DNA from: Thermoplasmata archaeon
GTDB taxonomy: Archaea; Thermoplasmatota; Thermoplasmata; UBA10834
DNA: 64,000 nucleotides
Reading direction: 5' to 3'
Assembly: GCA_041554135.1 (NCBI GenBank)
Contig: JBFFML010000004.1
Span: 37,340-101,339 of the forward strand
Positions 16,113-46,462 of the stretch are shown one piece after another; position 1 is the stretch's first letter; each line of letters starts with the position of its first letter. The notes under the pieces were generated by a model. That model had not been told where the DNA came from and did not search any database. It saw nothing but the letters and a program-made list of their open reading frames with translations. The translations under genes were made by a program, and so were the position numbers.

Positions 16113-16453
16113 GTCGAGGACGGATATTATGTCCCTTTTCAGCTAAATCACCGCACTCATGAACCGAACACGCGGACTTAAGGCTTTTGAAGGGCCACGG
16201 AGGGCTCGGGGCACGATGCGACGGCTACGGTCCCACGCGCTCGCACGGGGATTCCCCACATATGACGCACACGCTACATCCTGACAGGCTGGCCACGGGT
16301 CCGCCGCACTCCGGGCAACGCTCGTGGACGGCCTCGTACGACCTTGGCGACGATGCGCGCCTACGGCTGCTCATGATGACATGTCACGGAGACCAAACGG
16401 GAAGTAGGTTGCGTGCGGGGATGGGCGAAAGTGCTCCAGGTCTTGCGACAAGG

Positions 16454-16486: not shown

Positions 16487-16558
16487 GGCCGGGGTGGGGT
16501 AATGGTATCCTTGGGGACTGTGGATCCCTTGACCCGGGTTCGATTCCCGGTCCCGGCC
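16487..16558 (+). tRNA. tRNA-His (anticodon GUG) with genome-encoded G-1
   Basis: Hand-folded. The acceptor pairs GCCGGGG with TCCCGGC. The anticodon stem pairs GGGGA with TCCCT around the loop CU-GUG-GA. The T arm is CCGGG-TTCGATT-CCCGG. An extra G at 16487 lies opposite discriminator C at 16558, which is the tRNA-His hallmark. CCA is not fully encoded. Confidence 0.85.
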
Positions 16559-16574
16559 CACCGCCTCCCTTCGG

Positions 16575-16934
16575 TCACTCTGTGAACATCGCCCCGCAGT
16601 GAGGGCACTTCTTGTCTTCCTCGCCCACGCTCTTGCCGCACGCTGGGCATTCGAACGTGGACGCGTCGTCCTTGGGTGGGGTATCACTCTGCGAAGGGCT
16701 GTCGAGCTCGATCGTCGATGTCTCGGCGACCTCCTCGGCGAATATCTCGAACTCAGTGCCGCAGGACTCGCACCTCATGTTGGCCGACGTCGTGTGCTCG
16801 CTGCAGAACGGGCACTCGAACTCCCTGTCTTCGAACGAGACGCCGCAACGTGGGCACTTGTCTTCGTCCCCGGACACCGTCTTCCCACAGGAAACACAGG
16901 CTAGAACAAACACTGGCAGAGACTCTTCAGCCAT
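16575..16934 (-). CDS. Small acidic protein with three zinc ribbons
   Basis: ATG at 16934 inside track ORF 16575..17438 (MAEESLPVF...). Ribbons are CVSCGKTVSGDEDKCPRCG, CPFCSEHTTSANMRCESCG and CPACGKSVGEEDKKCPHCG. The Arg-rich track extension is an off-frame read of the neighbour's Lys-rich tail. Confidence 0.65.
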   Translation of the reverse strand: MAEESLPVFVLACVSCGKTVSGDEDKCPRCGVSFEDREFECPFCSEHTTSANMRCESCGTEFEIFAEEVAETSTIELDSPSQSDTPPKDDASTFECPACGKSVGEEDKKCPHCGAMFTE

Positions 16935-17007
16935 GTGGTCGACAAGATTCTGCAGGTATTTAATTGGTTGCAGATGCCCCGGGAATACGACGGCCGAGCT
17001 GGGCGAA

Positions 17008-17805
17008 TCACTTCTTCTTGGGCCGGCCGGGAGATCTCTTCTTGCCACTCGCGCCCGATGTACCGCCCTTCTTGGACGCAGGCTTCTTCTTGGTGGGCTT
17101 CTTGGCGGGTTTCTTCTTGGCGGGTTTCTTCTTGGCGGAGCTCTTGCGGACCGTCTTCGGCTTGGGTCCTCCCTTCGGACGCGCAGCCTTCTTCGCGGGC
17201 TTCTTCGCGGGCTTTCTCGCAGGCTTCCTCGCAGGCTTCCGGGCCTTCTTCGCCGCCCCGCCTGACTTACCCTTCGACGACGATGCGGCCTCTGACGCTG
17301 CCTCCCCTTGCGCAACTGTCCCATGGGCCACGCCGCGGGCCTCCCTCTCCGCGAACTCGGCCTTGCAGTTCGGGCACGAGGCGGACCGGATCGGCATCTT
17401 CTCGCCACACACGGGGCACTCCACGCTCGCCTCGCCAAGCGGCAGGTCGCACCGGGGACACTTCTCCTCGTCCCCGCGGATCATCAGGCCGCAGCCAGGG
17501 CATGCGACCTTCCTCTCGCTCGATCTTAGTTGCTCCAGCTCGGTGTTGATTATGTTCTCGACGAACTCGTCCATGTCGAACCCGGCGAATGTCTTCTCCA
17601 CGCTGATCGAGAACTCCGTCAGGTCTATGCCGCACGTGGAGCACTTGGACGCGTTGCGCCAAACGAGGCCGGAGCAGAAAGGGCATTCGAAGAGCGTCCC
17701 TGGGCCGAACTGGAGCCCGCATCTCGGACACTCGGAATCGCCCGCTCTGACGATACGCCCGCACTTGAAACAACTGAGGAAGATGTCCGCCTTCTCTTCC
17801 GCCAT
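17008..17805 (-). CDS. Four-zinc-ribbon protein with ~88-aa Lys/Ala/Pro-rich polycationic C-terminal tail
   Basis: Ribbons are CFKCGRIVRAGDSECPRCG, CPFCSGLVWRNASKCSTCG, CPGCGLMIRGDEEKCPRCD and CPVCGEKMPIRSASCPNCK. The tail reads KKARKPARKPARKPAKKPAKKAARPKGGPKPK...KKKPAKKKPAKKPTKKKPASKK...RPKKK. Confidence 0.7.
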   Translation of the reverse strand: MAEEKADIFLSCFKCGRIVRAGDSECPRCGLQFGPGTLFECPFCSGLVWRNASKCSTCGIDLTEFSISVEKTFAGFDMDEFVENIINTELEQLRSSERKVACPGCGLMIRGDEEKCPRCDLPLGEASVECPVCGEKMPIRSASCPNCKAEFAEREARGVAHGTVAQGEAASEAASSSKGKSGGAAKKARKPARKPARKPAKKPAKKAARPKGGPKPKTVRKSSAKKKPAKKKPAKKPTKKKPASKKGGTSGASGKKRSPGRPKKK

Positions 17806-17866
17806 AGTGATTACAGGATGTTACAACTGTTATATAAATTGTGGAATCTGGCAGACGGGCATCTGC

Positions 17867-20800
17867 TCATGCAGAGTCCCGGTCGACGCCTCTCCTGCCT
17901 CTCCCAGACCGCCCGCGGGCGACGGCGAATATCATCATGATGAACAGCACTGGGACGAGGACGTCCGAGAACTCGGGTATCTTCTCGAATATGACCTCGA
18001 CGTTCGAGGTCGTGTTCTGCGTCCACTGCATGCATATGTTCTGCCAGCCGGAGACGGCATACACCGAGGTCAGGTGCGACTTCGCGTAGGAGTTCTGCTC
18101 GATCGTCACCCACGCCCATGAGCCGCTCGCGTTCTTCTTCACGAACACTTGGTTCGAGATGTCCTGCAGCCACATCGCGTACAGATTCCCCGTCGCCGTG
18201 TCGAGTGACAAGGTGGGGCACGTGTGGCCTCGCGTGCTCGACTCGTTGAGCGGCAAGGCCGACGACCAGCCGCTGCCATTGTTGTACGCGTAGTTGATTG
18301 TGGCCCTCAGCTTCCCGCCTACCTGGTCCCCCGTCCCGTAAACGACGTGCAGCACGCCGTCGCCGTCGACGAGGGCCGAGGGTGGCGCAAGGTCCGTGTT
18401 CGCTGTGCTGGCCCCCGCGGCGTACACGACCGTCGGTGTGCTCCATGCGGAACCGCCGTTGCTCCTGCTGTAAACGGCGCCGTCTGAGCCGTAGACTGCC
18501 CACACGGCTACGCCAGACCCGGCCTTCCCCGGAACTATCACGGCTTTGCTGTTCGTCGCCGCGGACCATGGGCTCAAGAGGTCTCCCTTGTAAGACCATG
18601 TGCCCTCGACATCGTCCACGGCGGCACTCTGGTAGGTCCAAAGACCGAACTGGGAGTTGGTTGAGTGCTCGCGCGAGGTCGCGGCGATCCAGAGATATCC
18701 GTTCGAGTCCTTGCACATGAATGCGTTCTTGCCGCCTGTCGCGTACGCGGACACGGCAAGCGTGGTCTCGTTGCCCCAAGTTATGACGGCCGTCACCGGG
18801 TCGACCGAACCGCGGCGCACGTGGATGTCCGTCGTGGAGGACGCTGTGTCGCCCACCGCGTAGACGACCTTGTTGGCGGTATCGTACCATACGCTCGTCT
18901 CGTTCACGCCCGCGATCGAGTCGAAGACGGCCCCCGCGCTCGTCCAGGAGACACCGCCGTCGGAACTGCTGGCGTAGACGGTGTCCGTGCCGTCCCAGTA
19001 GAAACTCCAGAAGTTGGTGCCGTCATGGAACAGTTTCCGCTGATACGACATGGATGTGGCCCAGTTGGATGCCATCGACGTGTCGACGACCCAGCCACGC
19101 AGGTCCGCCTCTGATGCCAGCGCCAAGGAGGACGCGCTGGCGAGCAACGGGTCCACCATCGCCATGTCCGTCCTGCCCTTCCAGTCCGTCGCCTCGACCA
19201 CGAACTCGAAGGCGCCGCCGTCGCCGAATGCCGCCGAGGGCAAGCTGATCTCCATCTGACTCGCATCCTTGGCAACCGATATCGTCGTGAATGTGAGCTT
19301 CCACTCCCCCTGATCGTAGTCGAACAGGTACTCGGTCAGCACCTCGCCGAACTGACCTACGACCTCCACCATCTGGTCCGCGCCGATCGTCCTCGAACCG
19401 TACGATAGCGGATAGCCGGTCGCCACCGAGGCGTCGCTGTCGACGAATATCCTGATGTAATCCTCGCCCGTCTTCCTCTGGGGCGCGACGGGCGTGCCAC
19501 CGCCGCCGCCTGAGGGCTTGGCCTTCAAGGACGGCACGTAAGCGCCGCTACATATCTCCCCCGCGACGCTCACGTAGAAGAACGACAGGCCTGTGTGGTT
19601 CGTCCCCGCCACTTCCGCTATGTCGATGTTCGCGTTCTCCACGGGCTCGGCGTCTGAGTCGCTCAACAGCAGGTCAGACCAATCCGCGAACGCGCCGTCG
19701 ACAATCACGAAATCGGGAGCGGAGTCCACATATCCAGTGCAAGGTTCGCCATAGACCTCGCTGTGAGCGAACGTCCAGTCCGACGCGACGGTGTCAATGG
19801 CTACCGAGCACAGCTCTCCAGGGGATGACAGGGACAGGTCGGCGATGACCTGGATGACATAAGGGTCGTCCATGGGACCGATCGTGACGCCGTCACCCAC
19901 GGACGGCGAGGTCGTGACATCGTCGTCGGTGAACGCCAGGGACCGCACAGTCCCGCTCGAGCCCTGGCAGCTCAGGGTCAGCCGCAGTACCGCGACCTCA
20001 GTCCCAGACGCGACCACTCCGCTGCTTGGAACGAGCGATTCCTGCTTGACGACCAGCACGCCACCCTCGTGCGGCGTCTCGTAGCTCACCGCGCGGCGCT
20101 CGAGTTCGTCCTGAGACATGAGCAGATATCTGACCTCCTGAGTCTCCAGGGCGCTCGCGAACACGGCCTTGGCCTCTAGCTGTGAGCCTTCGACACTATG
20201 CGTCAGAGAACCCATCTGTGCCCAAGAGCTCCAGTCTCGGCCGTCGTCCGAATCGAAACTCATGATCGTTGCGGACTCGATCGCGCCGTCCCAACCGTCT
20301 AGCTCGAGCATGTAATCGGCCCCGAGCGATCCGACGACATAGCCGGACGAGGATGAGCCGTCCGAGTCGATGAACAGGTAGAAGCTGCTCACGAGCGACG
20401 AGCCCATGGCATCCCCTCCCGTCTCTATGTACATGTAGAGGTCGTTCGCGTCGATGTGCACGGCCCAACGCTGCACGTCGACCGAAGGGGCGGAGGCCGC
20501 GGATGTCTTCATCGTGTAGGCGTCGACGTCGGACCAGTCCGAGAAGTCGCCGTCGATACTGAACGCCTCCGAATCCGTCCTATAGGCGAAGTAGATGAAT
20601 GTGGGGAGTATGATCAGGACGGCCACGAGCACGGCGAGGAATGGCCATCGTGTGATGATAGGGTATCTCTTGGTGCGGCGCGCTCCCGCTCCGCCACGCG
20701 TCCCGTTGATCATCCCTGTGCCGTTCACCATGCCAGTGCCGTTCACCATGCCAGTGCCGTTCACGATGCCTGTGCCGTTGACCCGGCCCACGCCGTGGTC

Positions 20801-21298
20801 GCGCGGCTCCACCAGCGTCGTCGTGACGGCCTCTGGCGGCGGGGAGGGCTCCTCTTCCTCCTCGGGCATAAACGACCGGTCGAGCAACGACTCCGCCAGC
20901 TCGGGCTTCTCAGCCTCGAACGTTACGCTACAGCTGGGGCACTTGCTGGCGCCCGCGGCGACTACGGCCCCACACTCGGGGCACTCGAGCTTGTCGTCCT
21001 CGGTGGCGACTGGCACGCCGCACCTCGGGCACTTGACGACACCCGCCTCGATAGCCATTCCACACGAGGGGCAGGAGATCCCGGCATGCGGAAGCGGCAG
21101 GCTCTCCTTGTCTGCGTCGAGGAACTCCCTCTGGGCTTGTTCGGCCTGCAGCCGTTGCATTAGCCGCTTCTCGATGACCTGGTCCATCTCTCTCCTCGTC
21201 AAGACCGTCTCGAGCCGCGTGCCACAGAACGGGCATCTCTCGGAGTCGGAAGGTACCTTGTTGCCGCAAAGGGGGCAATATAGAAGCTCCCTGTTCAA
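17867..21298 (-). CDS. 1143-aa membrane protein: three N-terminal cytosolic zinc ribbons, one TM helix, large extracellular region with BNR/Asp-box repeats, PEF-CTERM-like anchor
   Basis: Ribbons are CPLCGNKVPSDSERCPFCG, CPSCGMAIEAGVVKCPRCG and CPECGAVVAAGASKCPSCS. The basic stretch RRTKRYPIITR precedes the TM helix WPFLAVLVAVLIILPTFIYFAY. There are two DG-F-DWSD modules. Asp-box-like motifs are SSDGGVSW, SNGGSAWS and NNGSGWSS. The C-terminus is IPEFSDVLVPVLFIMMIFAVARGRSGRGRRG. Confidence 0.75.
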   Translation of the reverse strand: MNRELLYCPLCGNKVPSDSERCPFCGTRLETVLTRREMDQVIEKRLMQRLQAEQAQREFLDADKESLPLPHAGISCPSCGMAIEAGVVKCPRCGVPVATEDDKLECPECGAVVAAGASKCPSCSVTFEAEKPELAESLLDRSFMPEEEEEPSPPPEAVTTTLVEPRDHGVGRVNGTGIVNGTGMVNGTGMVNGTGMINGTRGGAGARRTKRYPIITRWPFLAVLVAVLIILPTFIYFAYRTDSEAFSIDGDFSDWSDVDAYTMKTSAASAPSVDVQRWAVHIDANDLYMYIETGGDAMGSSLVSSFYLFIDSDGSSSSGYVVGSLGADYMLELDGWDGAIESATIMSFDSDDGRDWSSWAQMGSLTHSVEGSQLEAKAVFASALETQEVRYLLMSQDELERRAVSYETPHEGGVLVVKQESLVPSSGVVASGTEVAVLRLTLSCQGSSGTVRSLAFTDDDVTTSPSVGDGVTIGPMDDPYVIQVIADLSLSSPGELCSVAIDTVASDWTFAHSEVYGEPCTGYVDSAPDFVIVDGAFADWSDLLLSDSDAEPVENANIDIAEVAGTNHTGLSFFYVSVAGEICSGAYVPSLKAKPSGGGGGTPVAPQRKTGEDYIRIFVDSDASVATGYPLSYGSRTIGADQMVEVVGQFGEVLTEYLFDYDQGEWKLTFTTISVAKDASQMEISLPSAAFGDGGAFEFVVEATDWKGRTDMAMVDPLLASASSLALASEADLRGWVVDTSMASNWATSMSYQRKLFHDGTNFWSFYWDGTDTVYASSSDGGVSWTSAGAVFDSIAGVNETSVWYDTANKVVYAVGDTASSTTDIHVRRGSVDPVTAVITWGNETTLAVSAYATGGKNAFMCKDSNGYLWIAATSREHSTNSQFGLWTYQSAAVDDVEGTWSYKGDLLSPWSAATNSKAVIVPGKAGSGVAVWAVYGSDGAVYSRSNGGSAWSTPTVVYAAGASTANTDLAPPSALVDGDGVLHVVYGTGDQVGGKLRATINYAYNNGSGWSSALPLNESSTRGHTCPTLSLDTATGNLYAMWLQDISNQVFVKKNASGSWAWVTIEQNSYAKSHLTSVYAVSGWQNICMQWTQNTTSNVEVIFEKIPEFSDVLVPVLFIMMIFAVARGRSGRGRRGVDRDSA
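20699..20782 (-). repeat. 18-bp tandem coding repeat (about 4.5 copies) encoding (NGTGMV)n
   Basis: The + strand reads gtgccgttcaccatgcca repeated with minor variants. The protein reads VNGTGIVNGTGMVNGTGMVNGTGMINGT at residues 173-200 of the 1143-aa protein. Confidence 0.8.
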
Positions 21299-21469
21299 AC
21301 CTCAAACACCTCTTAAAGCACGATGCATGTCGACGGTCGCCGTTGCGCGAGGAAAGGCGACTGACTACATTGGGAGATAGTTATAGCATTCAGGCTCTAT
21401 ATAAATATCTGGACGTGCAGATGGCGATTTGCATCGCCGCGCTCCGACGCTTCTCTCGAACTCAAAACG

Positions 21470-24474: not shown

Positions 24475-25200
24475 TTGCAGTCTCGTGCCGAAGTAAGCGA
24501 AGACAGGATACTCACGTACATCGACGGCTTCGACAGCAAGATAGGCGGAGGCATCCGGAAGGGCCACGTCGTGCTTCTCGCGGGCACCCCGGGTACTATG
24601 AAGTCGTCGATAGCCCTGAACATGATGCACAAGTGCGTGAGGAAGCGGGCCATGAACGTCCTGTACGTGAGCATAGAGGAGAGCAAGGAGAGCCTCATGG
24701 AGTGCATGGAGGAGCTCGGACTCGGCTCGGTCGACGAGAACAAGTTCTTCATCGTCGACATAGGCAAACTGCGGCTCGAGCACACCGACGCCGACATAGG
24801 CCGCGACTGGTTCAAGATACTCAAGGAGTACCTGAGGAAGAAGGTCGAGAACGAGGGCGTCGAGCTGATCGTGATCGACTCACTCACCGCGGTGTATTCG
24901 CTGACCCAGATCCAAAGCCCCAGGCAGGAGCTGTTCCACTTCTTCGGCTTCCTCAAGCGGCTCGGCGTGACCACGTTCCTCATATCGGAGACGCAGCAGA
25001 ACGGCCTCGCCTTCGGGCCGTATCATGAGGACTACCTCGCAGACGGCACGATCCTCCTGAAGTTCGTGGACGTCGGTGAATCGGATGTCCAGCTCAGGAT
25101 AAGGGCCGTGAAGATGCGCCATTCGAAGATACACCACGGCTACCTCACGCTGCTGTACCGCGACGGTCAGTTCATGGCAACCCCACCCATAGCGGAGTAA
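24475..25200 (+). CDS. KaiC/RecA-superfamily ATPase-like protein with deviant Walker A
   Basis: TTG start preceded by aggagga. The P-loop reads AGTPGTMKS, with Met where the canonical GK[ST] glycine sits. Walker B-like LIVIDSLT. Confidence 0.7.
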   Translation: MQSRAEVSEDRILTYIDGFDSKIGGGIRKGHVVLLAGTPGTMKSSIALNMMHKCVRKRAMNVLYVSIEESKESLMECMEELGLGSVDENKFFIVDIGKLRLEHTDADIGRDWFKILKEYLRKKVENEGVELIVIDSLTAVYSLTQIQSPRQELFHFFGFLKRLGVTTFLISETQQNGLAFGPYHEDYLADGTILLKFVDVGESDVQLRIRAVKMRHSKIHHGYLTLLYRDGQFMATPPIAE

Positions 25201-25273: not shown

Positions 25274-25669
25274 TCAGAAGCCGCCCTTTATCTTGTTCCG
25301 GTCTATGCGTATACCCTGCGGGGTCACCATCAACAGGTTCTTCCCCACGCCGGCGACGTCGCCGTTGACGTCCCTCGCGACATGCTTCAGCTCCGCCGTG
25401 ATCCTCTTCAGTGTCAGGTCGTCGTTGGCTATCGACGTGAAGTCTAAAATCACGATGTTGCCCGCGTACACCTCGCTGGTGAGCAACGACAGGTCCTCGT
25501 ACCGGAACAGCTCGCCGACCTTGACGAGCTGAGCGCCTTCGGTGTCTCCCGTGACGTGCTCGTCATCGAACGCCATCTCGCTCAGGTCGATGTACTGCTC
25601 AGCGCTGGCGTGGTGTCTGCTCTCTGACTCCTGCGACGAAGGGAAAGTCTTCTTCTTCAGAATGGTCAC
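25274..25669 (-). CDS. sepF: SepF-like cell-division protein (DUF552)
   Basis: 131 aa. The core LVKVGELFRYEDLSLLTSEVYAGNIVILDFTSI...RITAELKHVARDVNGDVAGVGKNLLMVTPQGIRI matches the SepF fold pattern as I remember it. Confidence 0.6.
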   Translation of the reverse strand: MTILKKKTFPSSQESESRHHASAEQYIDLSEMAFDDEHVTGDTEGAQLVKVGELFRYEDLSLLTSEVYAGNIVILDFTSIANDDLTLKRITAELKHVARDVNGDVAGVGKNLLMVTPQGIRIDRNKIKGGF

Positions 25670-32253: not shown

Positions 32254-34038
32254 TCAACGCGCGCCGTCGGAACGCTTGTGCGCGCGCGAGGACCTAATGA
32301 GGACGCCGAACAACAACAGAAGCATCGCCACCGGGAGGAGCGCTCCGCCGAACTCGGGGATCACCTCGTGATCCACTGTCACCACGACCTCGTCGGTGTC
32401 GGAGTTGCCGGAGGGGTCAAGCACAGTCAACGTGACGGTGTACACACCTTCCGTCCAGAACACGAAATGAGGCGTCTCGCCATATAGTTCGACCGTCGAG
32501 CCGTTGTAGACGAACGACCAAGTCATGTTCGCTATCCCGACATCGTCCGAGGAGCCAGAGCCGTCGAACGACACGAGCCAGCCCAGAGGCACGGTTATGT
32601 CTGAGCCCGCATCGGCCACGGGAGGCGTCGCATCGACGAGGACCAAGAACGAATGCGCCTCGTACGGCGCGTATCTCGGAGACATGAGCTCGACCCCGGA
32701 GACGTCGCGTGCTACGATGTAGTAGTCAATCACGGACCCTGGAGGCTGAGAGGGGATCGAAGCCGTGTAAGTATCGTTCTCCGCGCCCTTGGCCATGGTC
32801 ACCTCGTGCCATGCCCCGCCGTCCACGCTGTACCTGAGCTCCGTTGCTGATTCGTCCAGACCTCTCGCTGCAGTGATATTGGCCAGCGCTTCGCGGTCGT
32901 GTCCCGTGTAAAGCTCGTCCTGCAAAGGCTCGTGCTGAATCTCGAACTGCCGTTCCTCCCTGTCGCCGGCGATCTCAATCAGGAGAAGCGCGGGGGGTAT
33001 GTTCTCAGCAATAAGCCCCAGGACGGCGTCCTCCTGGTCCGGGTGGAACCCATCTTGTGACCCACCCACCTCGAACAGGAACGCATAGATGTCGACGCCG
33101 CCGTAGAGCCAGTCGAGCGAGTCACCTGTTGTCGGGTACAAGCCGACCGACTGGTCGGCAGTGTAGCCGTTGAGCGCCGCGAGGCTGTTGCCAATGCGCA
33201 CGAGGTCGTCGTTGTCTGGTGGGGCATCCTCCGTGTAGCCCCAGGGCCACATGACGAGGTCGGAGTACGTGTGGAAGTCGATGGCGACGGTGAAGCTGTG
33301 ATTGAGCGCGAGATCTCTTATGGCCTGCGTCTCAGGTTCAGAGAAGGGATACTCGCCACAGTAGGTGGAGTCGGACGTGACATTAGACGTTCCCGCGCCG
33401 CCCCAAGCGCCTAGGGGATCGCCGTTCTCCGAGCCGTTATAGTTCCTGTTGAGGTCGACCCCGAACGTGCCGTCACCGTTGTCCCTCCTGTTCTTACGCC
33501 AGTATTCATCGACGTTCAGAGCGAAATCCAGACCGTCCGGGTTGACGACCGGCACGATCCATATCTCCCGATTATCGACCAGCCAGCTGATCCTAGCATC
33601 CGAACCGTAAAGGTCGGTCAAGTTCTCCACGAGTTGCATGGTTATCTCAGAACCTGGCCACTCCCGGGCATGGTGAAGGGACATGATGAGGATCTCAGGC
33701 TCATCCTCATCCACCTCCACATTGTCAGAGATCTTCACTGCGAGTATGTCGCGTTCGGCAATCCCCTGCGTCGTCTCCCAGCTATCCCCGATATCGAATA
33801 CACTTGATATGTCGGGGTGGTCTGCTTCGGTAGCGTAGAGCGTGTCCCTTATCGTCGGATAGTCCCTGTACGCGTATGAGGCAGGAGGCGCCGCAATGGT
33901 CGAACCCCCATAGGCGTCAGGCTCGACCCATCCGTCCGTCGGCTCATACGATGCGGAGTGGCCGCTGGGCAGGGTGAGCACTGTGAGGACTAACAGCGCG
34001 AATATGGGAACGCCAAGAGCCTTCTTCACCTTCTCCAC
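32254..34038 (-). CDS. Secreted M14 zinc carboxypeptidase with PKD-like domain and PEF-CTERM-like anchor
   Basis: N-terminal signal-like helix ALGVPIFALLVLTVLTL. Motifs HHAREW, VNPDG and DFHTYS. PKD-like FDGSGSSDDVGIANMTWSF...YTVTLTVLDPSGNSDTDEVVVTV. C-terminus IPEFGGALLPVAMLLLLFGVLIRSSRAHKR. Confidence 0.8.
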   Translation of the reverse strand: MEKVKKALGVPIFALLVLTVLTLPSGHSASYEPTDGWVEPDAYGGSTIAAPPASYAYRDYPTIRDTLYATEADHPDISSVFDIGDSWETTQGIAERDILAVKISDNVEVDEDEPEILIMSLHHAREWPGSEITMQLVENLTDLYGSDARISWLVDNREIWIVPVVNPDGLDFALNVDEYWRKNRRDNGDGTFGVDLNRNYNGSENGDPLGAWGGAGTSNVTSDSTYCGEYPFSEPETQAIRDLALNHSFTVAIDFHTYSDLVMWPWGYTEDAPPDNDDLVRIGNSLAALNGYTADQSVGLYPTTGDSLDWLYGGVDIYAFLFEVGGSQDGFHPDQEDAVLGLIAENIPPALLLIEIAGDREERQFEIQHEPLQDELYTGHDREALANITAARGLDESATELRYSVDGGAWHEVTMAKGAENDTYTASIPSQPPGSVIDYYIVARDVSGVELMSPRYAPYEAHSFLVLVDATPPVADAGSDITVPLGWLVSFDGSGSSDDVGIANMTWSFVYNGSTVELYGETPHFVFWTEGVYTVTLTVLDPSGNSDTDEVVVTVDHEVIPEFGGALLPVAMLLLLFGVLIRSSRAHKRSDGAR

Positions 34039-34868: not shown

Positions 34869-37800
34869 ATGTCAGCCGAACCACACCAACCATCAGGGAA
34901 TGCTGTCCACTCCACGGACAATGAATCGAAGATAGGACGGGGTTGGAATGTGGAGCCGCAGATAGGCGCGAACGCAAGGACGGTACTAGAGCGACGCTAC
35001 CTGAAGAAGGGAGAGGACGGCAAGGCCGCGGAGACGCCACGCCAGTTGTTCGAGCGTGTCGCACAAGCGATAGCCTCCGCAGAGGAGAGATATGGCAAAT
35101 CGGCCAAAGAGAGGGACGAGATTGCCGCTCGGTTCTACGAGATGATGGCCCGTCAGGAGTTCATGCCGAATAGCCCTACGCTCATGAACGCTGGCAGGGA
35201 GTTGGGACAGCTATCGGCGTGTTTCGTCCTTCCTGTGGGCGACTCGATGGAGGAGATCTTCGACTCCATCAAATACACTGCCCTCATACACAAATGCCTC
35301 GTCCCGGAGACACTGGTGATGACCGACTCCGGATGCATGAACCTCGGTTCGGTACGGAACGACACATGGATTGAGACGCACGAGGGCATGGACCAGGTGA
35401 TTGAGAACCACGACAACGGCATCCAGAGAGTCATGACGGTGGAGACGGACGAAGGGTACTCAATCACTGGGACGCCGCAACACCGCCTGATGACGGAGCA
35501 GTCTGGAAGGGAACTCGAGTGGAAGCAGATGGGTGATCTTGAGGAGGGGGAGACGCTCATCATGAAGCTCGGAGGATGGCTGGGCGGCACACTTCACAGC
35601 GTCGAGCGCGACATATCGGACTTCTCCGACTCTTTCGACGAGAGCGTGGTAAGAGCGGATGAACGCGCGCTGTGCGAATTCCTCAGGAACGCATTCACAG
35701 GGCACGGATGGGTGACCGACGAGGGCATCGTTCGACTGGAGCTGGACTCCGAGAGCGTCGCCCGGGAGCTTCAGGTGATCCTGTTCTATGTCGGAGTGCC
35801 CACGCACAGGGACGGCCCGAGCCTGACCGTGTGCACAGCTTCGGGGTTCCAGACGTTCAAGGAGAAGATAGGCTTCGACTCAATGCTCCTCTCGCGTAGG
35901 CTGGCGGGCGTTGGTCCCGACGACGTCCTGCCGGGCCTCAGGGCCGCAGAGGTGGCCCACGAAGAGGCGGACGACCAGGGGTTCTACAGAGTCAAGGTGA
36001 AGCGCGTGACGACCTGTGGCGACAGAGGCGTAGTCGACCTCACAGTGAAAGGGAGTCATGCATACCTGGCCAACGGTTTCGTATCTCACAACAGTGGTGG
36101 AGGGACGGGATTCAGCTTCTCGCGCCTCCGACCGGCGAGGGACTGCGTGAAGAGCACCGCAGGCGTGTCGAGCGGTCCGATCTCCTTCATGGAAGTCTTC
36201 AACACCGCGACCGAGACGATCAAGCAGGGCGGCACCCGCAGGGGCGCCAACATGGGCATACTGAGAGTCGACCATCCGGACATACTCGAGTTCATCACGT
36301 GCAAGCGAGACAGTACCAAGCTGACGAACTTCAACATATCAGTGGCGCTCACGGACAGGTTCATGAGCGCCCTCGAGAGGGACGAGGAGTACGACATGGT
36401 CAACCCCAGGTCCGGCGAGGTCGTGTCGAAGATGAAGGCCAAGAAGGTCTTCGACCTGATCGTCAACATGGCATGGCGGAACGGCGAGCCTGGGATCGTC
36501 TTCATAGACAGGATAAACAGGGACAACCCGACGCCGTCGGTCGGCGAGATCGAGAGCACCAATCCCTGCGGGGAGCAGCCGCTCCTGCCGTACGAGTCCT
36601 GCAACCTCGGCTCCATAAACCTCGCCAAGATGATGAAGATGCAGGACGGGCGCGTGGTCGTGGACTACGACCGGCTGAGGGAGACAGTCCATTTGGCCGT
36701 CCGATTCCTGGACGACGTGATAGACGTGAACAAGTACCCGTTGGAGCAGATTGACCACATGACCAAGGCCAACCGGAAGATCGGCCTTGGGGTGATGGGC
36801 TTCGCGGACATGTTGCTGCACATGGGCGTACGCTACGACTCCGACGAGGCTTCGGGCCTTGGCGGTGAGCTCATGGCATTCATAGACGAGGAGGGGCACA
36901 GGGCCTCCCAGGAGCTGGCGGACGAGCGTGGGAGTTTCCCCAACTTCGAGGAGAGCACCTTGTCCAAGCGGTATGACAGGTTGCGCAACGCGACGGTGAC
37001 GACGATAGCCCCCACCGGCACCATAAGCATCATCACGGGGGCGTCCAGCGGCATAGAGCCCATATTCGCAGTCGCCTATGTCCGGAACGTAATGGACAGG
37101 GACATCCTCCCGGAGGTCAATCCGATATTCGAACAGATGGCGAAGGAGCGGGGGTTCTACTCTGAGGACATGATGAAGGAGATCGCGGCCCAGGGCTCCG
37201 TCAAGGACGTCAAGGGCGTCCCTGAGGATCTCAGGGAGCTTTTCGTGACCGCCCTGGACATAACGCCCGAGGCGCACGTCCGGATGCAGGCCGCCTTCCA
37301 GGAACACACCGACAACGCCGTCTCCAAGACGGTCAACTTCCCAAAGGAGGCGACGACCGAGGACGTCGAGCGCGTCTACATGCTGGCCCACAGACTCGGC
37401 TGCAAGGGCGTGACGGTTTACAGGTACGGCAGCAGGGACGACCAGGTACTCAGCGTCGGAGACGGCGCTGCCAAGAAGGGGGCCGAGGAGGGCGACGGGA
37501 AGGCTCAGGAGGACGCCCGCGCCCCCAGACCGAGGCCCTACAGGACGACTGGCACGACACAGCGGATCGAGACTGGATGCGGACACCTGTATGTGACGAT
37601 CAACGAGGACGAGAACGGCCTCTGCGAGGTGTTCACGCAGATGGGCAAATCGGGGGGATGCACGGCCTCGCAGTCCGAGGCAATAGGCAGGCTGCTGTCG
37701 CTGGCCCTCAGATCCGGGATCGACCCGGAGTCCATAACCAAGCAGCTGAGGGGCATAAGATGCCCCTCGCCGCTCTGGCAGCCGGGCGGTATGGTGCTGT

Positions 37801-38030
37801 CGTGCAGCGACGCGGTGGCCAAGGCGCTCGACCGGTACGTGAACGAGCGCTCATCACGGGTGGGATCGACCGCGAGTCCGCCCTCTGGCCTGGATACCGC
37901 CACCGTCGAGAAGCAGAACCATGTCGACAGGGGGGACGTGTGTCCCGAGTGCCCGGAGTGCGGGAGCATGGTGGAGTACGTCGAAGGATGCGTCGTCTGC
38001 AGGACCTGCGGATACTCTCGCTGTTGGTGA
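34869..38030 (+). CDS. nrdJ: Class II (adenosylcobalamin-dependent type) ribonucleotide reductase, intein-containing, with C-terminal zinc ribbon
   Basis: Extein motifs NSPTLMNAG, ACFVLPV, GGGTGFSFSRLRP, STNPCGEQPL and TIAPTG. C-terminal CPECPECG...CVVCRTCG. The extein is 787 aa once the 266-aa insert is removed. Confidence 0.9.
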   Translation: MSAEPHQPSGNAVHSTDNESKIGRGWNVEPQIGANARTVLERRYLKKGEDGKAAETPRQLFERVAQAIASAEERYGKSAKERDEIAARFYEMMARQEFMPNSPTLMNAGRELGQLSACFVLPVGDSMEEIFDSIKYTALIHKCLVPETLVMTDSGCMNLGSVRNDTWIETHEGMDQVIENHDNGIQRVMTVETDEGYSITGTPQHRLMTEQSGRELEWKQMGDLEEGETLIMKLGGWLGGTLHSVERDISDFSDSFDESVVRADERALCEFLRNAFTGHGWVTDEGIVRLELDSESVARELQVILFYVGVPTHRDGPSLTVCTASGFQTFKEKIGFDSMLLSRRLAGVGPDDVLPGLRAAEVAHEEADDQGFYRVKVKRVTTCGDRGVVDLTVKGSHAYLANGFVSHNSGGGTGFSFSRLRPARDCVKSTAGVSSGPISFMEVFNTATETIKQGGTRRGANMGILRVDHPDILEFITCKRDSTKLTNFNISVALTDRFMSALERDEEYDMVNPRSGEVVSKMKAKKVFDLIVNMAWRNGEPGIVFIDRINRDNPTPSVGEIESTNPCGEQPLLPYESCNLGSINLAKMMKMQDGRVVVDYDRLRETVHLAVRFLDDVIDVNKYPLEQIDHMTKANRKIGLGVMGFADMLLHMGVRYDSDEASGLGGELMAFIDEEGHRASQELADERGSFPNFEESTLSKRYDRLRNATVTTIAPTGTISIITGASSGIEPIFAVAYVRNVMDRDILPEVNPIFEQMAKERGFYSEDMMKEIAAQGSVKDVKGVPEDLRELFVTALDITPEAHVRMQAAFQEHTDNAVSKTVNFPKEATTEDVERVYMLAHRLGCKGVTVYRYGSRDDQVLSVGDGAAKKGAEEGDGKAQEDARAPRPRPYRTTGTTQRIETGCGHLYVTINEDENGLCEVFTQMGKSGGCTASQSEAIGRLLSLALRSGIDPESITKQLRGIRCPSPLWQPGGMVLSCSDAVAKALDRYVNERSSRVGSTASPPSGLDTATVEKQNHVDRGDVCPECPECGSMVEYVEGCVVCRTCGYSRCW
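35295..36092 (+). mobile_element. Intein (266 aa) inserted between ...ALIHK and SGGGTGFSF...
   Basis: Block A CLVPETLVMTDSG and block B ITGTPQHRLMT. A single LAGLIDADG-like motif, FLRNAFTGHGWV. Terminal block VVDLTVKGSHAYLANGFVSHN is followed by +1 Ser. Coordinates were derived from residue counts (143-408). Confidence 0.85.
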
Positions 38031-44311: not shown

Positions 44312-45013
44312 TCAGAATATATCGGCGCCCGCGTGGACGACGATGCCGCCTTCGGAGATCGTGTACGGCTTGACGCGTCTCGAATGGCCCGTCCGCCTCA
44401 TCTTGAGTATCCTCAACGTCAACTGCACCTCTCCCGAGTCGCTGTCCTCGTCGGACTGAAGCAACAGCACGCCGTCCGCGGTGTACTCGGCGAGGCCGTC
44501 CCTGGAGGACCTGGGGTTCTCGTCCTTGACCTCGGCGGTGAGCAGGGAAGTCGCACCTGTGCTGCGGAGGAGTTGGCACAGGTTGAACAGATTGGCCCTG
44601 CGCTCCGAATCGTCTGGGAACATCATGTTCAGAAGGGACACCGAATCTATGACGACCCTCTTCGCGCCGAACGCCTTCACGAACTTGGGAAGCTCGCTCT
44701 TTATCCTGTTTATCGTCGTCTTCGCGTCCGAAGGCTCCAGCTTGAATAGCCCCAGCTTCTTCTTCGAGATTGGCTCCGAGAGGTCCCAGCCGAAGGCGTC
44801 GGAGTTCTTCATAACGGAATCCTTGTCCTCCTCGAGCGATATGAATATGCAGTTCTCGCCGTCCTTGAGGCCCTCTATCAGGAACTGCAGGGCCATGGTC
44901 GTCTTCCCGGTGCCGAACGAGCCCATCAGCAGGACTATGTGTCCCTCCGGGAGCCCGCCCTGAAGCATCTCATCCAAACCCGGCACGCCCGTCTTGATCC
45001 TCTTCGAAGCCAT
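44312..45013 (-). CDS. KaiC/RecA-superfamily ATPase with canonical Walker A
   Basis: ATG at 45013 (MASKRIKTGVPGLDEML). Walker A GSFGTGKTT and Walker B VVIDSVS. Confidence 0.75.
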   Translation of the reverse strand: MASKRIKTGVPGLDEMLQGGLPEGHIVLLMGSFGTGKTTMALQFLIEGLKDGENCIFISLEEDKDSVMKNSDAFGWDLSEPISKKKLGLFKLEPSDAKTTINRIKSELPKFVKAFGAKRVVIDSVSLLNMMFPDDSERRANLFNLCQLLRSTGATSLLTAEVKDENPRSSRDGLAEYTADGVLLLQSDEDSDSGEVQLTLRILKMRRTGHSRRVKPYTISEGGIVVHAGADIF

Positions 45014-45020
45014 CTGTGTC

Positions 45021-45866
45021 TCACCCCACACGCTCTGTGTTTATCACGACGAAACCGCTCTGAGAGGTGATCAGCGTCGCGAAGCGCGCGATCCTCTCCT
45101 GGTCCAAGTGCGGTAACACGCTCATGAACTTCTCCACATAGAGGTACCTCTGCCTCTTGGATGTGTGATGGAACTTCGCCCACTCGAACCTCAGCACCCC
45201 GTCCACGCTGTCTATTATCATCTGCTGCTTCCTCCTGTCCAGGATCTCGTCCGTCAGGAGCACGTAGAACACGGACTGCCACTTCTTCGACATCCTCTGG
45301 ATCCCCTTCATGAGGGCGACGACGTCCTCGAACTTCACTGTCTCCGAGACCACGAGGTCCGTGAGGGAGTCTATGACGACGAGGCTCTTCGGGGCGTTCG
45401 TGTCGAGGAACGTCACGAGCGACTCCAGTACATCGTCGTCCTTGTTCTCGGCGAACAGCTCCGACCCATCGGAGCCCACCCAGCTCGTCGGGACCACCGT
45501 CCTCATGAAGTAGCCTTTGGAGAAATCCTTGAAGAGGAGGTTGCTCTCTATCGACTCGTAGAAATCCCTCGTGAACGACAGGCTGACCTCGCGCAGGACA
45601 TCCTCCTTCGAGCGCGAGAACGTGATATACGCCATCTTGTCTGGCAGTATGCCGTCCTTGCCAGCATGTCCCATCATGAAGCTTCTGGTCTCCGGGAACT
45701 CCTTCACGAGCCCTATCTTCGCGGCGGAAGTGAGGGCGAACTCAAGGCCTCCGCCGCCAACGTCGCCGAGAAGCAGCACGACGGACCCCAGAGGTATGCC
45801 TCCTCCGATTATCGAATCGAAATCCGCGACGCCCGTCGGCGTCCGAGCTATGGTCCCTTCCGACAT
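45021..45866 (-). CDS. KaiC-like paralog with degenerate P-loop (probable pseudo-ATPase)
   Basis: Preferred ATG at 45866 (MSEGTIARTPTGVADFDSIIGGGIP). At the Walker A position it has LLLGDVGGGGLEF, with no Lys-Ser/Thr. Walker B-like LVVIDSLTD is retained. The track ORF start (46070) would overlap the cinA gene. Confidence 0.55.
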   Translation of the reverse strand: MSEGTIARTPTGVADFDSIIGGGIPLGSVVLLLGDVGGGGLEFALTSAAKIGLVKEFPETRSFMMGHAGKDGILPDKMAYITFSRSKEDVLREVSLSFTRDFYESIESNLLFKDFSKGYFMRTVVPTSWVGSDGSELFAENKDDDVLESLVTFLDTNAPKSLVVIDSLTDLVVSETVKFEDVVALMKGIQRMSKKWQSVFYVLLTDEILDRRKQQMIIDSVDGVLRFEWAKFHHTSKRQRYLYVEKFMSVLPHLDQERIARFATLITSQSGFVVINTERVG

Positions 45867-45958
45867 GAGTGCGAAGGCGCAAATGAGGTTATCGAGTAAT
45901 GAACCTTTTGGGCTCTGCGCGCGCAGCATTGCGTCTTCACGCGCGCACAGGCGCGACC

Positions 45959-46462
45959 CTACCGCGTCGGCGTGATGGAATCCAGCACTTCGTCGAGCAT
46001 CAGGATCGCCTTCTCGACCGCCCTGCACTTTATCTCCGACCTCGAGCCGCCGAACCTGTTCTCTGTGCACAGGGTCCCGTCCTCGCTCGCGACGGCGATG
46101 TACACGAGCCCCACGGGTTTCGACGGGGTTCCCCCGGAAGGTCCCGCGATGCCTGTTATGCCGACGCCCAGGTCCGCCCGGAAACGCGTCCTGGCGCCGC
46201 TGGCCATCATCCTCGCGACCTCCTCGCTCACGGCGCCTTTCGATCCGAGGGTCTCACGGTCCACGCCCAGCATGTCCACCTTGGCGTCGTTCCCGTAGGA
46301 GACGACGCCGCCGAGGAAGTACGCGCTGCTGCCTGGCACCTCGGTGACGATGTCGCCGAGCTTCCCCCCGGTGCACGACTCGGCCACCGCGAGCGTCAGG
46401 CCCATCCTCTGGAGCTTCTCACCGATGCCGCTTGCCAGCAGTGTCCTTCCCCCTGTCGCCAT
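45959..46462 (-). CDS. pncC: CinA C-terminal-domain protein / NMN amidohydrolase (PncC-like)
   Basis: Motifs LAVAESCTGG and FLGGVVSYGNDAK. Length 167 aa. Confidence 0.8.
   Translation of the reverse strand: MATGGRTLLASGIGEKLQRMGLTLAVAESCTGGKLGDIVTEVPGSSAYFLGGVVSYGNDAKVDMLGVDRETLGSKGAVSEEVARMMASGARTRFRADLGVGITGIAGPSGGTPSKPVGLVYIAVASEDGTLCTENRFGGSRSEIKCRAVEKAILMLDEVLDSITPTR

Follow-up and report, generated by a model that had tools for sequence, protein, structure and literature searches.

Three paralogous genes for CPxCG multi-zinc-ribbon proteins, conserved side by side in uncultured Thermoplasmatota

The window analyzed here is a stretch of 64,000 nucleotides from an uncultured Thermoplasmata archaeon. 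Three adjacent genes in it, termed A, B and C, encode proteins with zinc ribbons, and the locus raises the question of what these genes share and whether their products act together. Their positions, the gene sizes (119, 265 and 1143 aa) and the gaps between them (73 nt for A-B, 61 nt for B-C) had been given correctly in an earlier, sequence-only reading. The cluster is composed as follows.

16488..16559, plus strand: tRNA-His (ARAGORN and Rfam), convergent with gene A and the 3' boundary of the trio
16575..16934, minus strand: gene A, 119 aa, acidic, with ribbons at 16845-16898, 16761-16814 and 16596-16649 (ORF, pattern, charge)
17008..17805, minus strand: gene B, 265 aa, with four CPxCG ribbons followed by an acidic linker and the K/P/A tail (ORF, Pfam, ribbon pattern)
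17867..21298, minus strand: gene C, 1143 aa, TTG start, a surface protein with a zinc-ribbon head and an anchor at either end (ORF)

The start of A is the ATG at 16934, as placed by orthologue alignment and a TATA box; a 287-aa open reading frame spanning 16575-17438 arises artefactually from a TTG further upstream. All three genes are conserved among uncultured Thermoplasmatota. Ten distinct related loci reach far enough to show the gene order, and each of them has C-B-A; an eleventh (L097), on a short contig, has B followed by A only. About 15 more B/C pairs come from contigs of equal length. The block HD-RtcB-C-B-A-OTC-DHH is likewise kept. The synteny expected by the earlier reading was thus found, but the roughly 15 genes of the surrounding block are just as syntenic at each of these loci, so the C-B-A order is not independent evidence of coupling. 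The trio is real, conserved and specific to this lineage, and its members are paralogous CPxCG multi-zinc-ribbon genes.

The ten copies of one ribbon type that had been described were all recovered (A 3, B 4, C 3), each with the spacing CxxC-x10-CxxC. The chance probability of four Cys at fixed spacing is about 1e-8 per position, and the pattern is therefore not a chance one; across all six frames of the remaining ~59 kb, the looser CxxC-x(9-13)-CxxC gave only five overlapping matches, at four further places. In the proposed profile searches, Pfam DZR and Zn_ribbon_3 were above cut-off in all three proteins and Zn_Ribbon_1 in A and C, the latter model remaining below threshold in B (16.9 bits vs a cut-off of 25). 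A and B align over about 113-127 residues with 31-36% identity, and ribbons 2-4 of B align with ribbons 1-3 of C, linker included. Residues 1-165 of B match the N-termini of longer C' paralogues across four ribbons (E 1e-26 to 1e-18) and a separate soluble paralogue family, Bdist (E 1e-27 to 1e-18). In Bdist the ribbons are followed by about 100 aa of Pro/Glu-rich spacer, and KKxKxRKLKAKP is conserved at the C-terminus. In an alignment of 22 B and Bdist sequences, all 16 Cys of the four-ribbon module are conserved (15 invariant, one nearly so), as are F64, D78, I85 and E88 of the linker. Paralogy of the ribbon modules beyond their cysteines is supported by these alignments. A is, by alignment score, specifically B-like, with B as its closest paralogue class (median 77 bits vs B orthologues, 45 bits vs generic multi-ribbon proteins), and the ribbons of C score barely closer to B than to generic multi-ribbon proteins (median 59 vs 51 bits). 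Bdist, C' and a one-ribbon form of C are located elsewhere, with no adjoining trio partner.

A has a pI of 4.2, a net charge of -17 and no hydrophobic segment, as fits its earlier description as an acidic soluble protein with three ribbons, and its orthologues are 50-69% identical. B is divided into two parts, which correspond to the four ribbons and the Lys/Pro/Ala tail of about 88 aa reported before.

17365..17772, minus strand: four-ribbon module of B, aa 12-147, two DZR units and a joining helix (CxxC-x10-CxxC pattern)
17011..17274, minus strand: polycationic tail of B, aa 178-265, with 12/15-nt DNA tandem repeats (charge and repeats)

The tail comprises 88 aa with a pI of 12 and a net charge of +40; residues 151-265 contain 29% K, 19% A and 11% P. 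As translated, 11 of the 12 orthologues have a tail with net positive charge, and in the twelfth a frameshift leaves the basic tail in another reading frame. Weak NCBIfam matches were obtained to the K/A/P-rich tails of PRK14900 and PRK13808. The ribbon part is 71-96% identical across more than 120 protein clusters. Within the same genomes the identity of the B ribbons (72-92%) is in the range of RtcB (73-84%), which argues for a conserved cytoplasmic partner. The ribbon head of C shows 35-79% identity, decaying to 35-46%, and this combination of steady B ribbons and a fast C head is unlike what would be expected from tight B-C co-evolution. A partner common to B and C is not assured, since the C head evolves faster and is scarcely nearer to B than to generic ribbons.

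C has more than 200 full-length homologues with 36-65% identity in uncultured Thermoplasmatota. The AlphaFold2 model has a mean pLDDT of 82. The cytoplasmic head and the two anchors are listed below.

21224..21277, minus strand: ribbon 1, aa 8-25, counterpart of B ribbon 2
21110..21196, minus strand: long linker helix, aa 35-63, from ribbon 1 to the double ribbon (DSSP on the AlphaFold2 model)
20930..21073, minus strand: ribbons 2 and 3, aa 76-123, a double zinc ribbon (Pfam DZR, 37.9 bits)
20703..20783, minus strand: 18-nt tandem repeat, 4.5 copies, coding (V/I)NGTGM hexapeptides in the cytoplasmic spacer (TRF score 113)
20582..20650, minus strand: TM helix 1, aa 217-239, after the basic RRTKRYPIITR (KD19 maximum 2.7; model helix 219-239)
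17870..17980, minus strand: IPEF motif, TM helix 2 and Arg-rich tail, PEF-CTERM-like (TIGR03024, sub-threshold)

The order of three ribbons, basic stretch and TM helix is as first described. The spacer with its five VNGTGM repeats is predicted to be disordered (pLDDT ~31), and N174, G175, N192, G193 and G195 in it are invariant or nearly so in 100 homologues. C has exactly two hydrophobic segments (~217-239 and ~1112-1131), with flanking charges of +5 before TM helix 1, -6 after it and +4 in the C-terminal tail; from these a topology with the N-terminus inside, an 866-aa ectodomain and the C-terminus inside is predicted, and the N-terminus is accordingly not placed outside the cell. The PEF-type anchor proposed earlier stands as a conserved arrangement of IPEF, TM helix and basic tail (E1109 invariant, P1108 and F1110 nearly so), but the TIGR03024 score of 15.7 bits is below the NCBIfam cut-off of 23; one homologue reached 22.6. 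A second protein of the window (32254-34038) has a PEF-type end like that of C.

The ectodomain is predicted to be almost wholly beta, mostly with pLDDT >90 (ectodomain models with pLDDT 82 and 88). It is predicted to contain four modules.

20069..20566, minus strand: D1, aa 245-410, beta-sandwich with IDGxFxDW ... DSDxSxxTGY ... GADY motifs (model and conservation)
19724..20059, minus strand: D2, aa 414-525, Ig-like beta-sandwich (AlphaFold2 model and structure matches)
19154..19711, minus strand: D3, aa 530-715, a repeat of the D1-type beta-sandwich (recurring D1 motifs; structure)
17981..19096, minus strand: beta-propeller, aa 735-1106, sialidase-like fold (Foldseek and one canonical Asp-box)

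The best PDB match of D1 is glucodextranase 1ug9 (E 1e-5), and invariant residues of D3 echo the D1 motifs (D534 G535 F537 W540, D620 D622, G639 A640). The propeller, predicted to be 6-7-bladed, gave 5mvh, 5mum, 4irt, 7esl and NanC as top Foldseek matches (TM-score normalized to the target 0.57-0.64, ~11% identity). Of the ~900 aa of beta-rich sequence with Asp-box motifs claimed before, the beta-rich part is borne out by the model of the 866-aa ectodomain, but only one canonical Asp-box is present (SSDGGVSW at residue 778). Pfam BNR models had no match in C, and matched 1 of 37 homologues weakly. The label 'BNR-type' for C is owed to the predicted fold and not to the sequence.

Expression signals were located upstream of each gene.

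17831..17838, minus strand: TATA box TTTATATA, ~29 nt upstream of the B ATG (sequence)
16957..16964, minus strand: TATA-like box ATTAAATA, ~27 nt upstream of the A ATG (sequence)
21307..21312, minus strand: GAGGTG, Shine-Dalgarno-like, 8 nt upstream of the C TTG (sequence)

TATA-like boxes are found upstream of B and of A in 12 of 12 loci each, 25-30 nt before the respective ATG. Of the 9 loci where the start of C was examined, 8 have GAGGTG and then TTG, with GAGGTA as the variant in one of them. Judged from these motifs, the trio does not look like a simple operon.

The reading favored here, at roughly even chances, is that a cytoplasmic docking module of common origin was put to separate uses in A, B and C. 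All three go back to one four-ribbon module of two double ribbons and a joining helix. B retains it in full, extended by the acidic linker and the Lys/Pro/Ala tail of histone-H1 type, A is a shortened acidic copy of B, and C bears a three-ribbon version on the predicted cytoplasmic side, opposite an ectodomain of three beta-sandwich modules and a sialidase-fold propeller, held by the N-terminal signal-anchor and the PEF-CTERM-like C-terminal anchor. The module may dock a conserved partner, protein or nucleic acid, in the cytoplasm. C could then hold the partner against the membrane, below an ectodomain of the adhesin or glycan-binding type, the tail of B could link it to a polyanion, whether DNA, RNA or anionic lipid, and A, having no effector part, would most likely compete for the same partner or neutralize the tail of B. 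The three genes would be driven by separate promoters. The architectures and the ribbon paralogy are supported. The three genes may be functionally related, but their products need not form one obligate complex or relay. Against this reading, the adjacency of the trio is confounded by the synteny of the whole neighborhood, Bdist and C' exist without trio partners, and the tail of B could bind targets other than nucleic acids.

Three other explanations were weighed against it. The sequence-only reading had A, B and C join through their ribbons in a heteromeric complex on the cytoplasmic face. A surface domain that may bind glycans would thereby be coupled to a polycation that may bind the nucleoid, as an envelope-to-nucleoid tether or a signaling relay. 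The invariant adjacency with short gaps, the common paralogous module, the N-in topology of C, the H1-like tail kept in all B orthologues and the opposite charges of A and B, by which A could regulate B, agree with such a complex, which we nevertheless consider unlikely: the ~15-gene block is equally syntenic, the separate start signals (a weak TTG for C, ATG for B and A) argue against stoichiometric co-expression, the C head diverges quickly while the B ribbons are about as conserved as RtcB, and the B and C paralogues are located apart from each other. It is possible, although improbable, that the genes are uncoupled neighbors, derived by local duplication and fission of the ribbon module, frozen in order and each acting alone. 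Neighborhood-wide synteny, independent promoters, very different evolutionary rates, paralogues at work in other contexts and a tandem duplication of C-family genes elsewhere (loci L091 and L095) would be explained in this way; the loss or relocation of a member in none of 10 complete loci (11 with L097), down to a C identity of ~40%, and the retention of the specifically B-like A as a separate small gene would not.

Less probable again is a division or cytoskeleton tether in which the ribbons bind FtsZ or another divisome protein, with C as integral and B and Bdist as peripheral anchors. The model for it is CdpC (HVO_0399, DUF7093), a CPxCG ribbon protein with a long disordered linker that serves as the membrane anchor of FtsZ1 in Haloferax volcanii (bioRxiv 10.64898/2026.07.16.738847). 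On this reading B and Bdist would consist of a ribbon domain, a disordered linker and a basic terminal peptide (in Bdist the Pro/Glu-rich spacer and KKxKxRKLKAKP), and sepF (25274-25669) is situated four genes from C in all syntenic loci. However, KaiC-like, HD and RtcB genes on alternating strands lie between sepF and the trio, the N-terminal amphipathic helix is absent, and the ribbons are at one end only. With E values up to 10 admitted, the Pfam model DUF7093 matched neither B and Bdist nor C' and the head of C, and in A it was not among the best 25 of 46 weak matches.

Lys/Ala/Pro-rich histone-H1-like tails are known from prokaryotic nucleoid proteins such as mycobacterial HupB and chlamydial Hc1. 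The tail of B resembles them in composition and charge, but this putative DNA-binding segment follows a four-ribbon module in place of an HU or H1 fold; in Bdist it is replaced by the Pro/Glu spacer and short basic motif. The CPxCG...CPxCG knuckle pairs are shared with archaeal zinc-finger or ribbon proteins (Brz, HVO_2753; PF12773, PF13248), and the small soluble A resembles the haloarchaeal micro-proteins as outlined in PMC2253796. In contrast to these, there is here a fixed four-ribbon module with a conserved linker helix, which in B is joined to the H1-like tail and in C to a TM helix with the 866-aa ectodomain, architectures not known from any characterized archaeal CPxCG protein. The C-terminus of C, with IPEF, hydrophobic helix and basic tail conserved in homologues, is similar to PEF-CTERM (TIGR03024), which is recognized by archaeosortase C (PMC5244752); typical substrates have a cleaved signal peptide, whereas C has a cytoplasmic domain and a signal-anchor, and scores 15.7 vs 23 bits. 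With sialidase-fold (GH33-like, BNR) and PL24/PL25/PL42 propellers, C shares the predicted propeller and one Asp-box, but at ~11% identity and with no BNR HMM match. The sialidase Arg triad is not conserved, as R754 is the only invariant Arg and a RIP motif is absent.

GltJ of Myxococcus, whose zinc-ribbon domain reportedly binds MglA-GTP, and TcaA of Staphylococcus match C in topology, with a zinc ribbon inside, a single TM helix and a large domain outside. Homology is limited to the ribbon (a weak NCBIfam TcaA match is confined to the ribbons), and C differs in its three ribbons, hexapeptide-repeat spacer, ectodomain and second, C-terminal anchor. In PMC11135422, which deals with a molecular switch for the assembly of focal adhesions, GltJ is described in outline as a machinery membrane protein. 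Remote multi-zinc-ribbon relatives of CdpC have been reported from all classes of Thermoplasmatota (bioRxiv 10.64898/2026.07.16.738847). The likeness to CdpC lies in the CPxCG zinc ribbon, the long disordered linker and the proposed link between membrane and cytoplasmic partner. In CdpC a single ribbon stands at either end, together with an amphipathic helix; in B all four ribbons are at one end and the tail is basic, and C is integral to the membrane and bears a large ectodomain. By analogy, CdpC and, as far as its outlined role goes, GltJ may serve as precedents for zinc-ribbon docking domains at membranes.

The trio of zinc-ribbon genes A, B and C, in which each ribbon is a pair of CPxCG knuckles, is bounded on one side by a tRNA gene and on the other by a divergent RtcB gene.

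Features of the trio and its surroundings in the window
16488-16559: tRNA-His, convergent with the trio, one of its boundaries
16575-16934, minus strand: gene A, 119 aa
17008-17805, minus strand: gene B, 265 aa
17086-17253: tandem repeats of 12-15 nt units in the tail of B
17867-21298, minus strand: gene C, 1143 aa, TTG start
24475-25200: KaiC-like ATPase gene, a few genes away in every syntenic locus
25274-25669: sepF, four genes away, likewise in every syntenic locus

The layout described in the sequence-only reading, three adjacent minus-strand genes with gaps of 73 and 61 nt, was confirmed by these coordinates. A six-frame scan likewise agreed with its count of ribbons, with ten CxxC-x10-CxxC units distributed as 3+4+3 over A, B and C; elsewhere in the 64-kb window, CxxC pairs occurred in four places only, with looser spacing. 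Proteins of the CPxCG/DZR zinc-ribbon superfamily are defined by CxxC knuckle pairs approximately 10-14 residues apart and an HMM score above the gathering cut-off. The Pfam DZR scores are 40.4 bits for A, 36.7 for B and 37.9 for C (cut-off 27.3), and Zn_ribbon_3 also exceeds its cut-off in all three. A, B and C are members of this superfamily; every further family label for them denotes resemblance rather than membership. As described earlier, A is an acidic soluble protein, with a pI of 4.2, a net charge of -17 and no hydrophobic segment. An anti-phage defense role was rejected: the PADLOC defense HMMs matched neither A nor C, and B gave a single match at chance level (E 0.0095).

Other reading frames in the window also encode cysteine clusters. 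A predicted 49-aa ORF (16225-16374, minus strand) has the pattern CPECG...CSVCVICG, is flanked by the OTCase gene and tRNA-His, and had no match in Pfam. The ribonucleotide reductase at 34869-38030 (plus strand) contains an intein (Pfam Intein_splicing, aa 182-408), with a TSCPD domain and a CxxC cluster at its end. A 1507-aa protein (53654-58177, plus strand) is free of Pfam domains over the greater part of its sequence, has a coiled-coil look when its Glu/Lys/Ala-rich sequence is read by eye, and carries a terminal Cys cluster with a weak Prok-RING_1 match of 23.7 bits, below the cut-off; it is putatively another large protein of the window with a terminal zinc module.

The locus defines a four-ribbon cytoplasmic module common to soluble proteins (A, B and Bdist) and surface proteins (C and C'). 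Residues 1-165 of B were used as the query in an exhaustive HMMER search of 1.8 billion representative proteins, in which the B orthologues form one single representative. The search recovered Bdist, a soluble family of 220-315 aa (E 1e-27 to 1e-18), and the N-termini of C', longer paralogues of C with 1260-1300 aa, in which all four ribbons were aligned (E 1e-26 to 1e-18). Bdist proteins keep all 16 Cys residues of the module, 15 of them invariant and one nearly so, together with the linker residues F64, D78, I85 and E88. They have no Lys/Pro/Ala tail and instead possess a spacer rich in Pro and Glu and, at the C-terminus, a conserved KKxKxRKLKAKP sequence that resembles a docking peptide. 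The B and Bdist locus tags OEM29_04730 and OEM29_08410 have a common prefix, so both genes are apparently in one MAG and, if so, are paralogues. In the alignment, A corresponds to ribbons 1 and 2 of B plus one later ribbon, and C to ribbons 2-4. In a local comparison, A reached a median of 77 bits with B orthologues and of 45 bits with generic multi-ribbon proteins; the C head reached 59 bits with B and 51 with the generic proteins. A greater similarity of these ribbons to one another than to generic ones is well borne out for A and B and barely so for C and B. Together, the HMMER matches, local scores and ribbon alignment indicate that the modules share ancestry; by sequence comparison, A branched off specifically from B, and the C head belongs more remotely to the module family.

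Relatives outside the trio have gene neighborhoods of their own. In a metagenome scan of 80 loci, the stand-alone B-like loci (L017-L086) had no C, A, RtcB or OTCase gene nearby, and the 17 larger ones with readable gene order showed a separate block with a PKD protein, LarC, TusA and DsrE. The block consists of a divergent PKD-domain gene followed by Bdist, LarC-like, TusA and DsrE genes, with Bdist for example at L040 10001-10756 and L032 5338-6069. Neither the C' genes nor a one-ribbon paralogue of C had B or A neighbors. Tandem pairs of C'-type genes, each encoding four ribbons, a TM helix and an ectodomain, were found in L091 (1384-6667) and L095 (2770-7148), from which it follows that this surface-protein family grows by local duplication.

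B was described as four ribbons followed by an 88-aa Lys/Pro/Ala tail, and this holds: residues 178-265 have a net charge of +40 and a pI of 12. Like the H1-like tails of nucleoid proteins, this segment is long, Lys/Ala/Pro-rich, proline-interrupted, strongly basic and disordered. It was found in all 12 B orthologues, one of them via a frameshift, has a length of 46-128 aa and is encoded by short DNA repeats. In the frameshifted case (L014, 8400-8800, GCA_040751795.1), the tail of the deposited orthologue P0188 is Ala/Glu-rich and the Lys/Pro/Ala tail lies in another frame, a discrepancy due to a frameshift or an assembly error. The ribbon part of B is 71-96% identical over more than 120 protein clusters.

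Identity to the window in the genome-by-genome comparison
B ribbons: 72-92%
RtcB: 73-84%
A: 50-69%
C ribbon head: 35-79%
C ectodomain: 39-64%

B, a protein with an H1-like tail, is thus about as strongly conserved as a housekeeping enzyme. For C, over 200 full-length homologues were found at 36-65% identity, all from uncultured Thermoplasmatota with varying source labels ('Methanobacteriota', 'Thermoplasmata', 'Euryarchaeota archaeon'). One C orthologue (L011, 10742-12160) contains an in-frame stop and is a pseudogene or reflects a sequencing error. A literature search by genome accession found no publication.

C contains exactly two hydrophobic segments, with charges of +5 before the first, -6 after the first and +4 after the second. 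This pattern predicts a cytoplasmic N-terminus, an 866-aa ectodomain and a cytoplasmic C-terminus, in agreement with the orientation of the ribbons assumed in the sequence-only reading. An AlphaFold2 model built with 100 homologues has a mean pLDDT of 82.

Features of C predicted by AlphaFold2
Ribbon 1, then a long helix (aa 35-63), then a double ribbon (aa 76-123)
aa 130-216: disordered stretch
aa 219-239: TM helix 1
aa 245-410, 414-525 and 530-715: three beta-sandwich modules
Linker, then a beta-propeller (aa 735-1106)
aa 1114-1132: TM helix 2

In the disordered stretch beside the membrane lie five (V/I)NGTGM hexapeptides; an 18-nt tandem repeat of 4.5 copies (window 20703-20783) codes for them, and their N and G positions are near-invariant among homologues.

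Typical exported PEF-CTERM substrates have a cleavable N-terminal signal peptide, and the family (TIGR03024) is defined by a C-terminal PEF motif, a TM helix and a basic tail, with an HMM score that exceeds the NCBIfam cut-off. C has no cleavable signal peptide; its 216-aa ribbon-bearing N-terminal segment is followed by a signal-anchor helix. Of the proposed PEF-type anchor, the IPEF motif, TM helix and Arg-rich C-terminal tail are present and kept across 100 homologues, but the end of C reaches 15.7 bits, below the cut-off of 23; C homologues scored 22.6 bits with TIGR03024 and 16.7 bits with PEFG-CTERM. Archaeosortase C is reported to recognize PEF-CTERM (PMC5244752). No archaeosortase was detected among the ORFs scanned in the 64-kb window. 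The M14 carboxypeptidase at 32254-34038 (minus strand), which also has a PKD domain, ends in VIPEFGG, a hydrophobic helix and a basic tail; this second PEF-CTERM-like protein suggests that the organism uses a PEF-CTERM sorting system. An S-layer function of C was judged unlikely, given the conserved TTG start and the several paralogues per genome.

The propeller was modeled with a pLDDT above 90 and gave sialidase-like Foldseek matches at E 2e-9 to 1e-6, with target-normalized TM values of about 0.5-0.64. Its best PDB matches are the sialidase-like and polysaccharide-lyase propellers 5mvh, 5mum, 4irt, 7esl and NanC, at approximately 11% identity and with a target-normalized TM of 0.57-0.64 for the first four and about 0.30 for NanC. 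The model accordingly predicts for C the six-bladed beta-propeller of GH33/BNR proteins. Hallmarks of these proteins are multiple Asp-boxes (SxDxGxTW) together with a match to the BNR or BNR_2 HMM, and the GH33 catalytic set comprises an Arg triad with (F/Y)RIP, an Asp acid/base and a nucleophile pair of Tyr and Glu. The Asp-box motifs previously reported for C reduce to one canonical box, SSDGGVSW at residue 778. The BNR-type label stands for the predicted fold but not for the HMMs: BNR models did not match C, and only one of 37 homologues matched, weakly (E 8e-4 and 3e-3). Across the propellers of 37-100 C homologues, checked for catalytic residues by sequence conservation only, the sole invariant Arg was R754 (SYQRKLF) and no RIP motif was found, so C does not qualify as a canonical sialidase. 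Residues 243-732, modeled on their own (pLDDT 88), matched glucodextranase 1ug9 (E 1e-5) and tandem Ig-like adhesin modules. A profile of 100 C homologues found nothing for the ectodomain among all PDB chains and only weak zinc-ribbon matches (PolD DP2, E 7e-4), as did a B/Bdist profile; Pfam recognized ribbon families only in 37 C homologues. The ectodomain of approximately 870 aa is a family without Pfam coverage that is defined by this locus.

The order C-B-A, for which a synteny search had been proposed, is intact in all related loci that extend far enough (L001/L007, L002, L005, L006, L009, L011, L012, L014, L015 and L016; the L012 contig begins inside C). L097 shows B followed by A, and about 15 further B/C pairs lie on contigs that are equal in size for B and C. 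The same loci also keep the order of SepF, a KaiC-like ATPase, HD and RtcB on one side and of OTCase, DHH-CID and an RNase-H-like gene on the other. Two further KaiC-like genes lie side by side at 44312-46070. Because the flanking HD, RtcB, OTC and DHH genes are equally syntenic in the same loci, the trio order can be put down to the overall stability of this part of the chromosome, and synteny was rejected as proof of coupling. That the three genes are neighbors without functional coupling is a rather unlikely explanation.

B orthologues carry a TATA box of the form TTTATATA or TTTAAATA, and A orthologues ATTAAATA-type TATA boxes, approximately 25-30 nt upstream of the ATG across loci, a placement that points to separate and probably leaderless transcripts. 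In C there is a GAGGTG-type motif 7-9 nt upstream of the TTG start in eight of nine loci examined; the initiation region lies at 21296-21312 in the window and also occurs in L001, L002, L005, L006, L008, L011 and L014. The three genes have conserved but different initiation signals, and initiation of translation at C is probably less efficient than at B and A. No oligo-T terminator was seen in the two gaps, so read-through from C is possible. Judged by these signals, C-B-A is probably not a simple operon, in the sense of a unit co-transcribed from one promoter with none inside it.

Firm at this locus are the three architectures, the predicted topology, the paralogy and the conservation patterns. 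In the proposed mechanism, the four-ribbon module would serve as a cytoplasmic docking domain, and the very slow evolution of B would imply a conserved cytoplasmic partner. The tail of B may bind a polyanion, with nucleic acid the likeliest target by composition. C would place an adhesin- or carbohydrate-binding-type ectodomain outside the cell and its ribbon head under the membrane. A, strongly acidic and without an effector part, would best be explained as a competitor or charge-neutralizing modulator of B.

The sequence-only reading had speculated that A, B and C couple the surface domain to a nucleic-acid-binding polycation, for example as an envelope-to-nucleoid tether or signaling relay. 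This mechanistic interpretation is plausible and draws on the adjacency and paralogy of the three genes and nothing further; several of the present results weaken it, and a single relay is rather improbable. The idea of a role as division anchor goes back to a July 2026 preprint, in which a CPxCG zinc-ribbon protein, CdpC, anchors FtsZ1 in Haloferax (10.64898/2026.07.16.738847). [quoted passage not shown] The position of sepF four genes from the trio would fit such a role, but no DUF7093 signal, the mark of CdpC, was detectable: it was absent for B and C at E up to 1, and with the limit relaxed to E 10 it was neither among the best 25 of 26 families for the B ribbon module nor among the 25 families that most of 12 ribbon modules matched. 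On the basis of these matches, membership of the trio proteins in CdpC/DUF7093 was rejected, and a CdpC-like role is very doubtful.

The docking mechanism, taken to its full extent, would make A, B and C an undescribed archaeal transmembrane linkage. It would run from a surface beta-propeller/beta-sandwich receptor to a chromosome-bound H1-like polycation or, by analogy with CdpC, to the FtsZ/SepF division machinery, with docking through homologous four-ribbon modules and acidic A as the switch; the module would be a membrane-to-cytoplasm adaptor family (C, C', B and Bdist) across the Thermoplasmatota. As a whole this is a long shot. Thermoplasmatota, most of them uncultured, are abundant, and to our knowledge almost nothing is known of their cell-envelope and chromosome biology. 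If the module docks surface proteins to the nucleoid or divisome, the CdpC finding reaches beyond haloarchaea and a handle is gained on the connection from outside to inside in these cells; if docking is false, the trio proteins are still well-defined new families for annotation. Interest is raised somewhat by the conservation of B, the uncovered four-ribbon module and the possible link to the new zinc-ribbon division anchors.

Compared with known systems, B resembles the tails of H1-like nucleoid proteins in composition only. C shares only the fold with GH33 sialidases and BNR proteins, from which it differs in catalytic and Asp-box features, and resembles PEF-CTERM proteins at a sub-threshold score, atypically for want of a signal peptide. 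Its topology is like that of GltJ/TcaA, with homology confined to the ribbon. The architecture of the trio differs by inspection from that of CdpC, the Haloferax protein being set apart by description rather than sequence. The trio proteins are uncharacterized families assembled from known building blocks.
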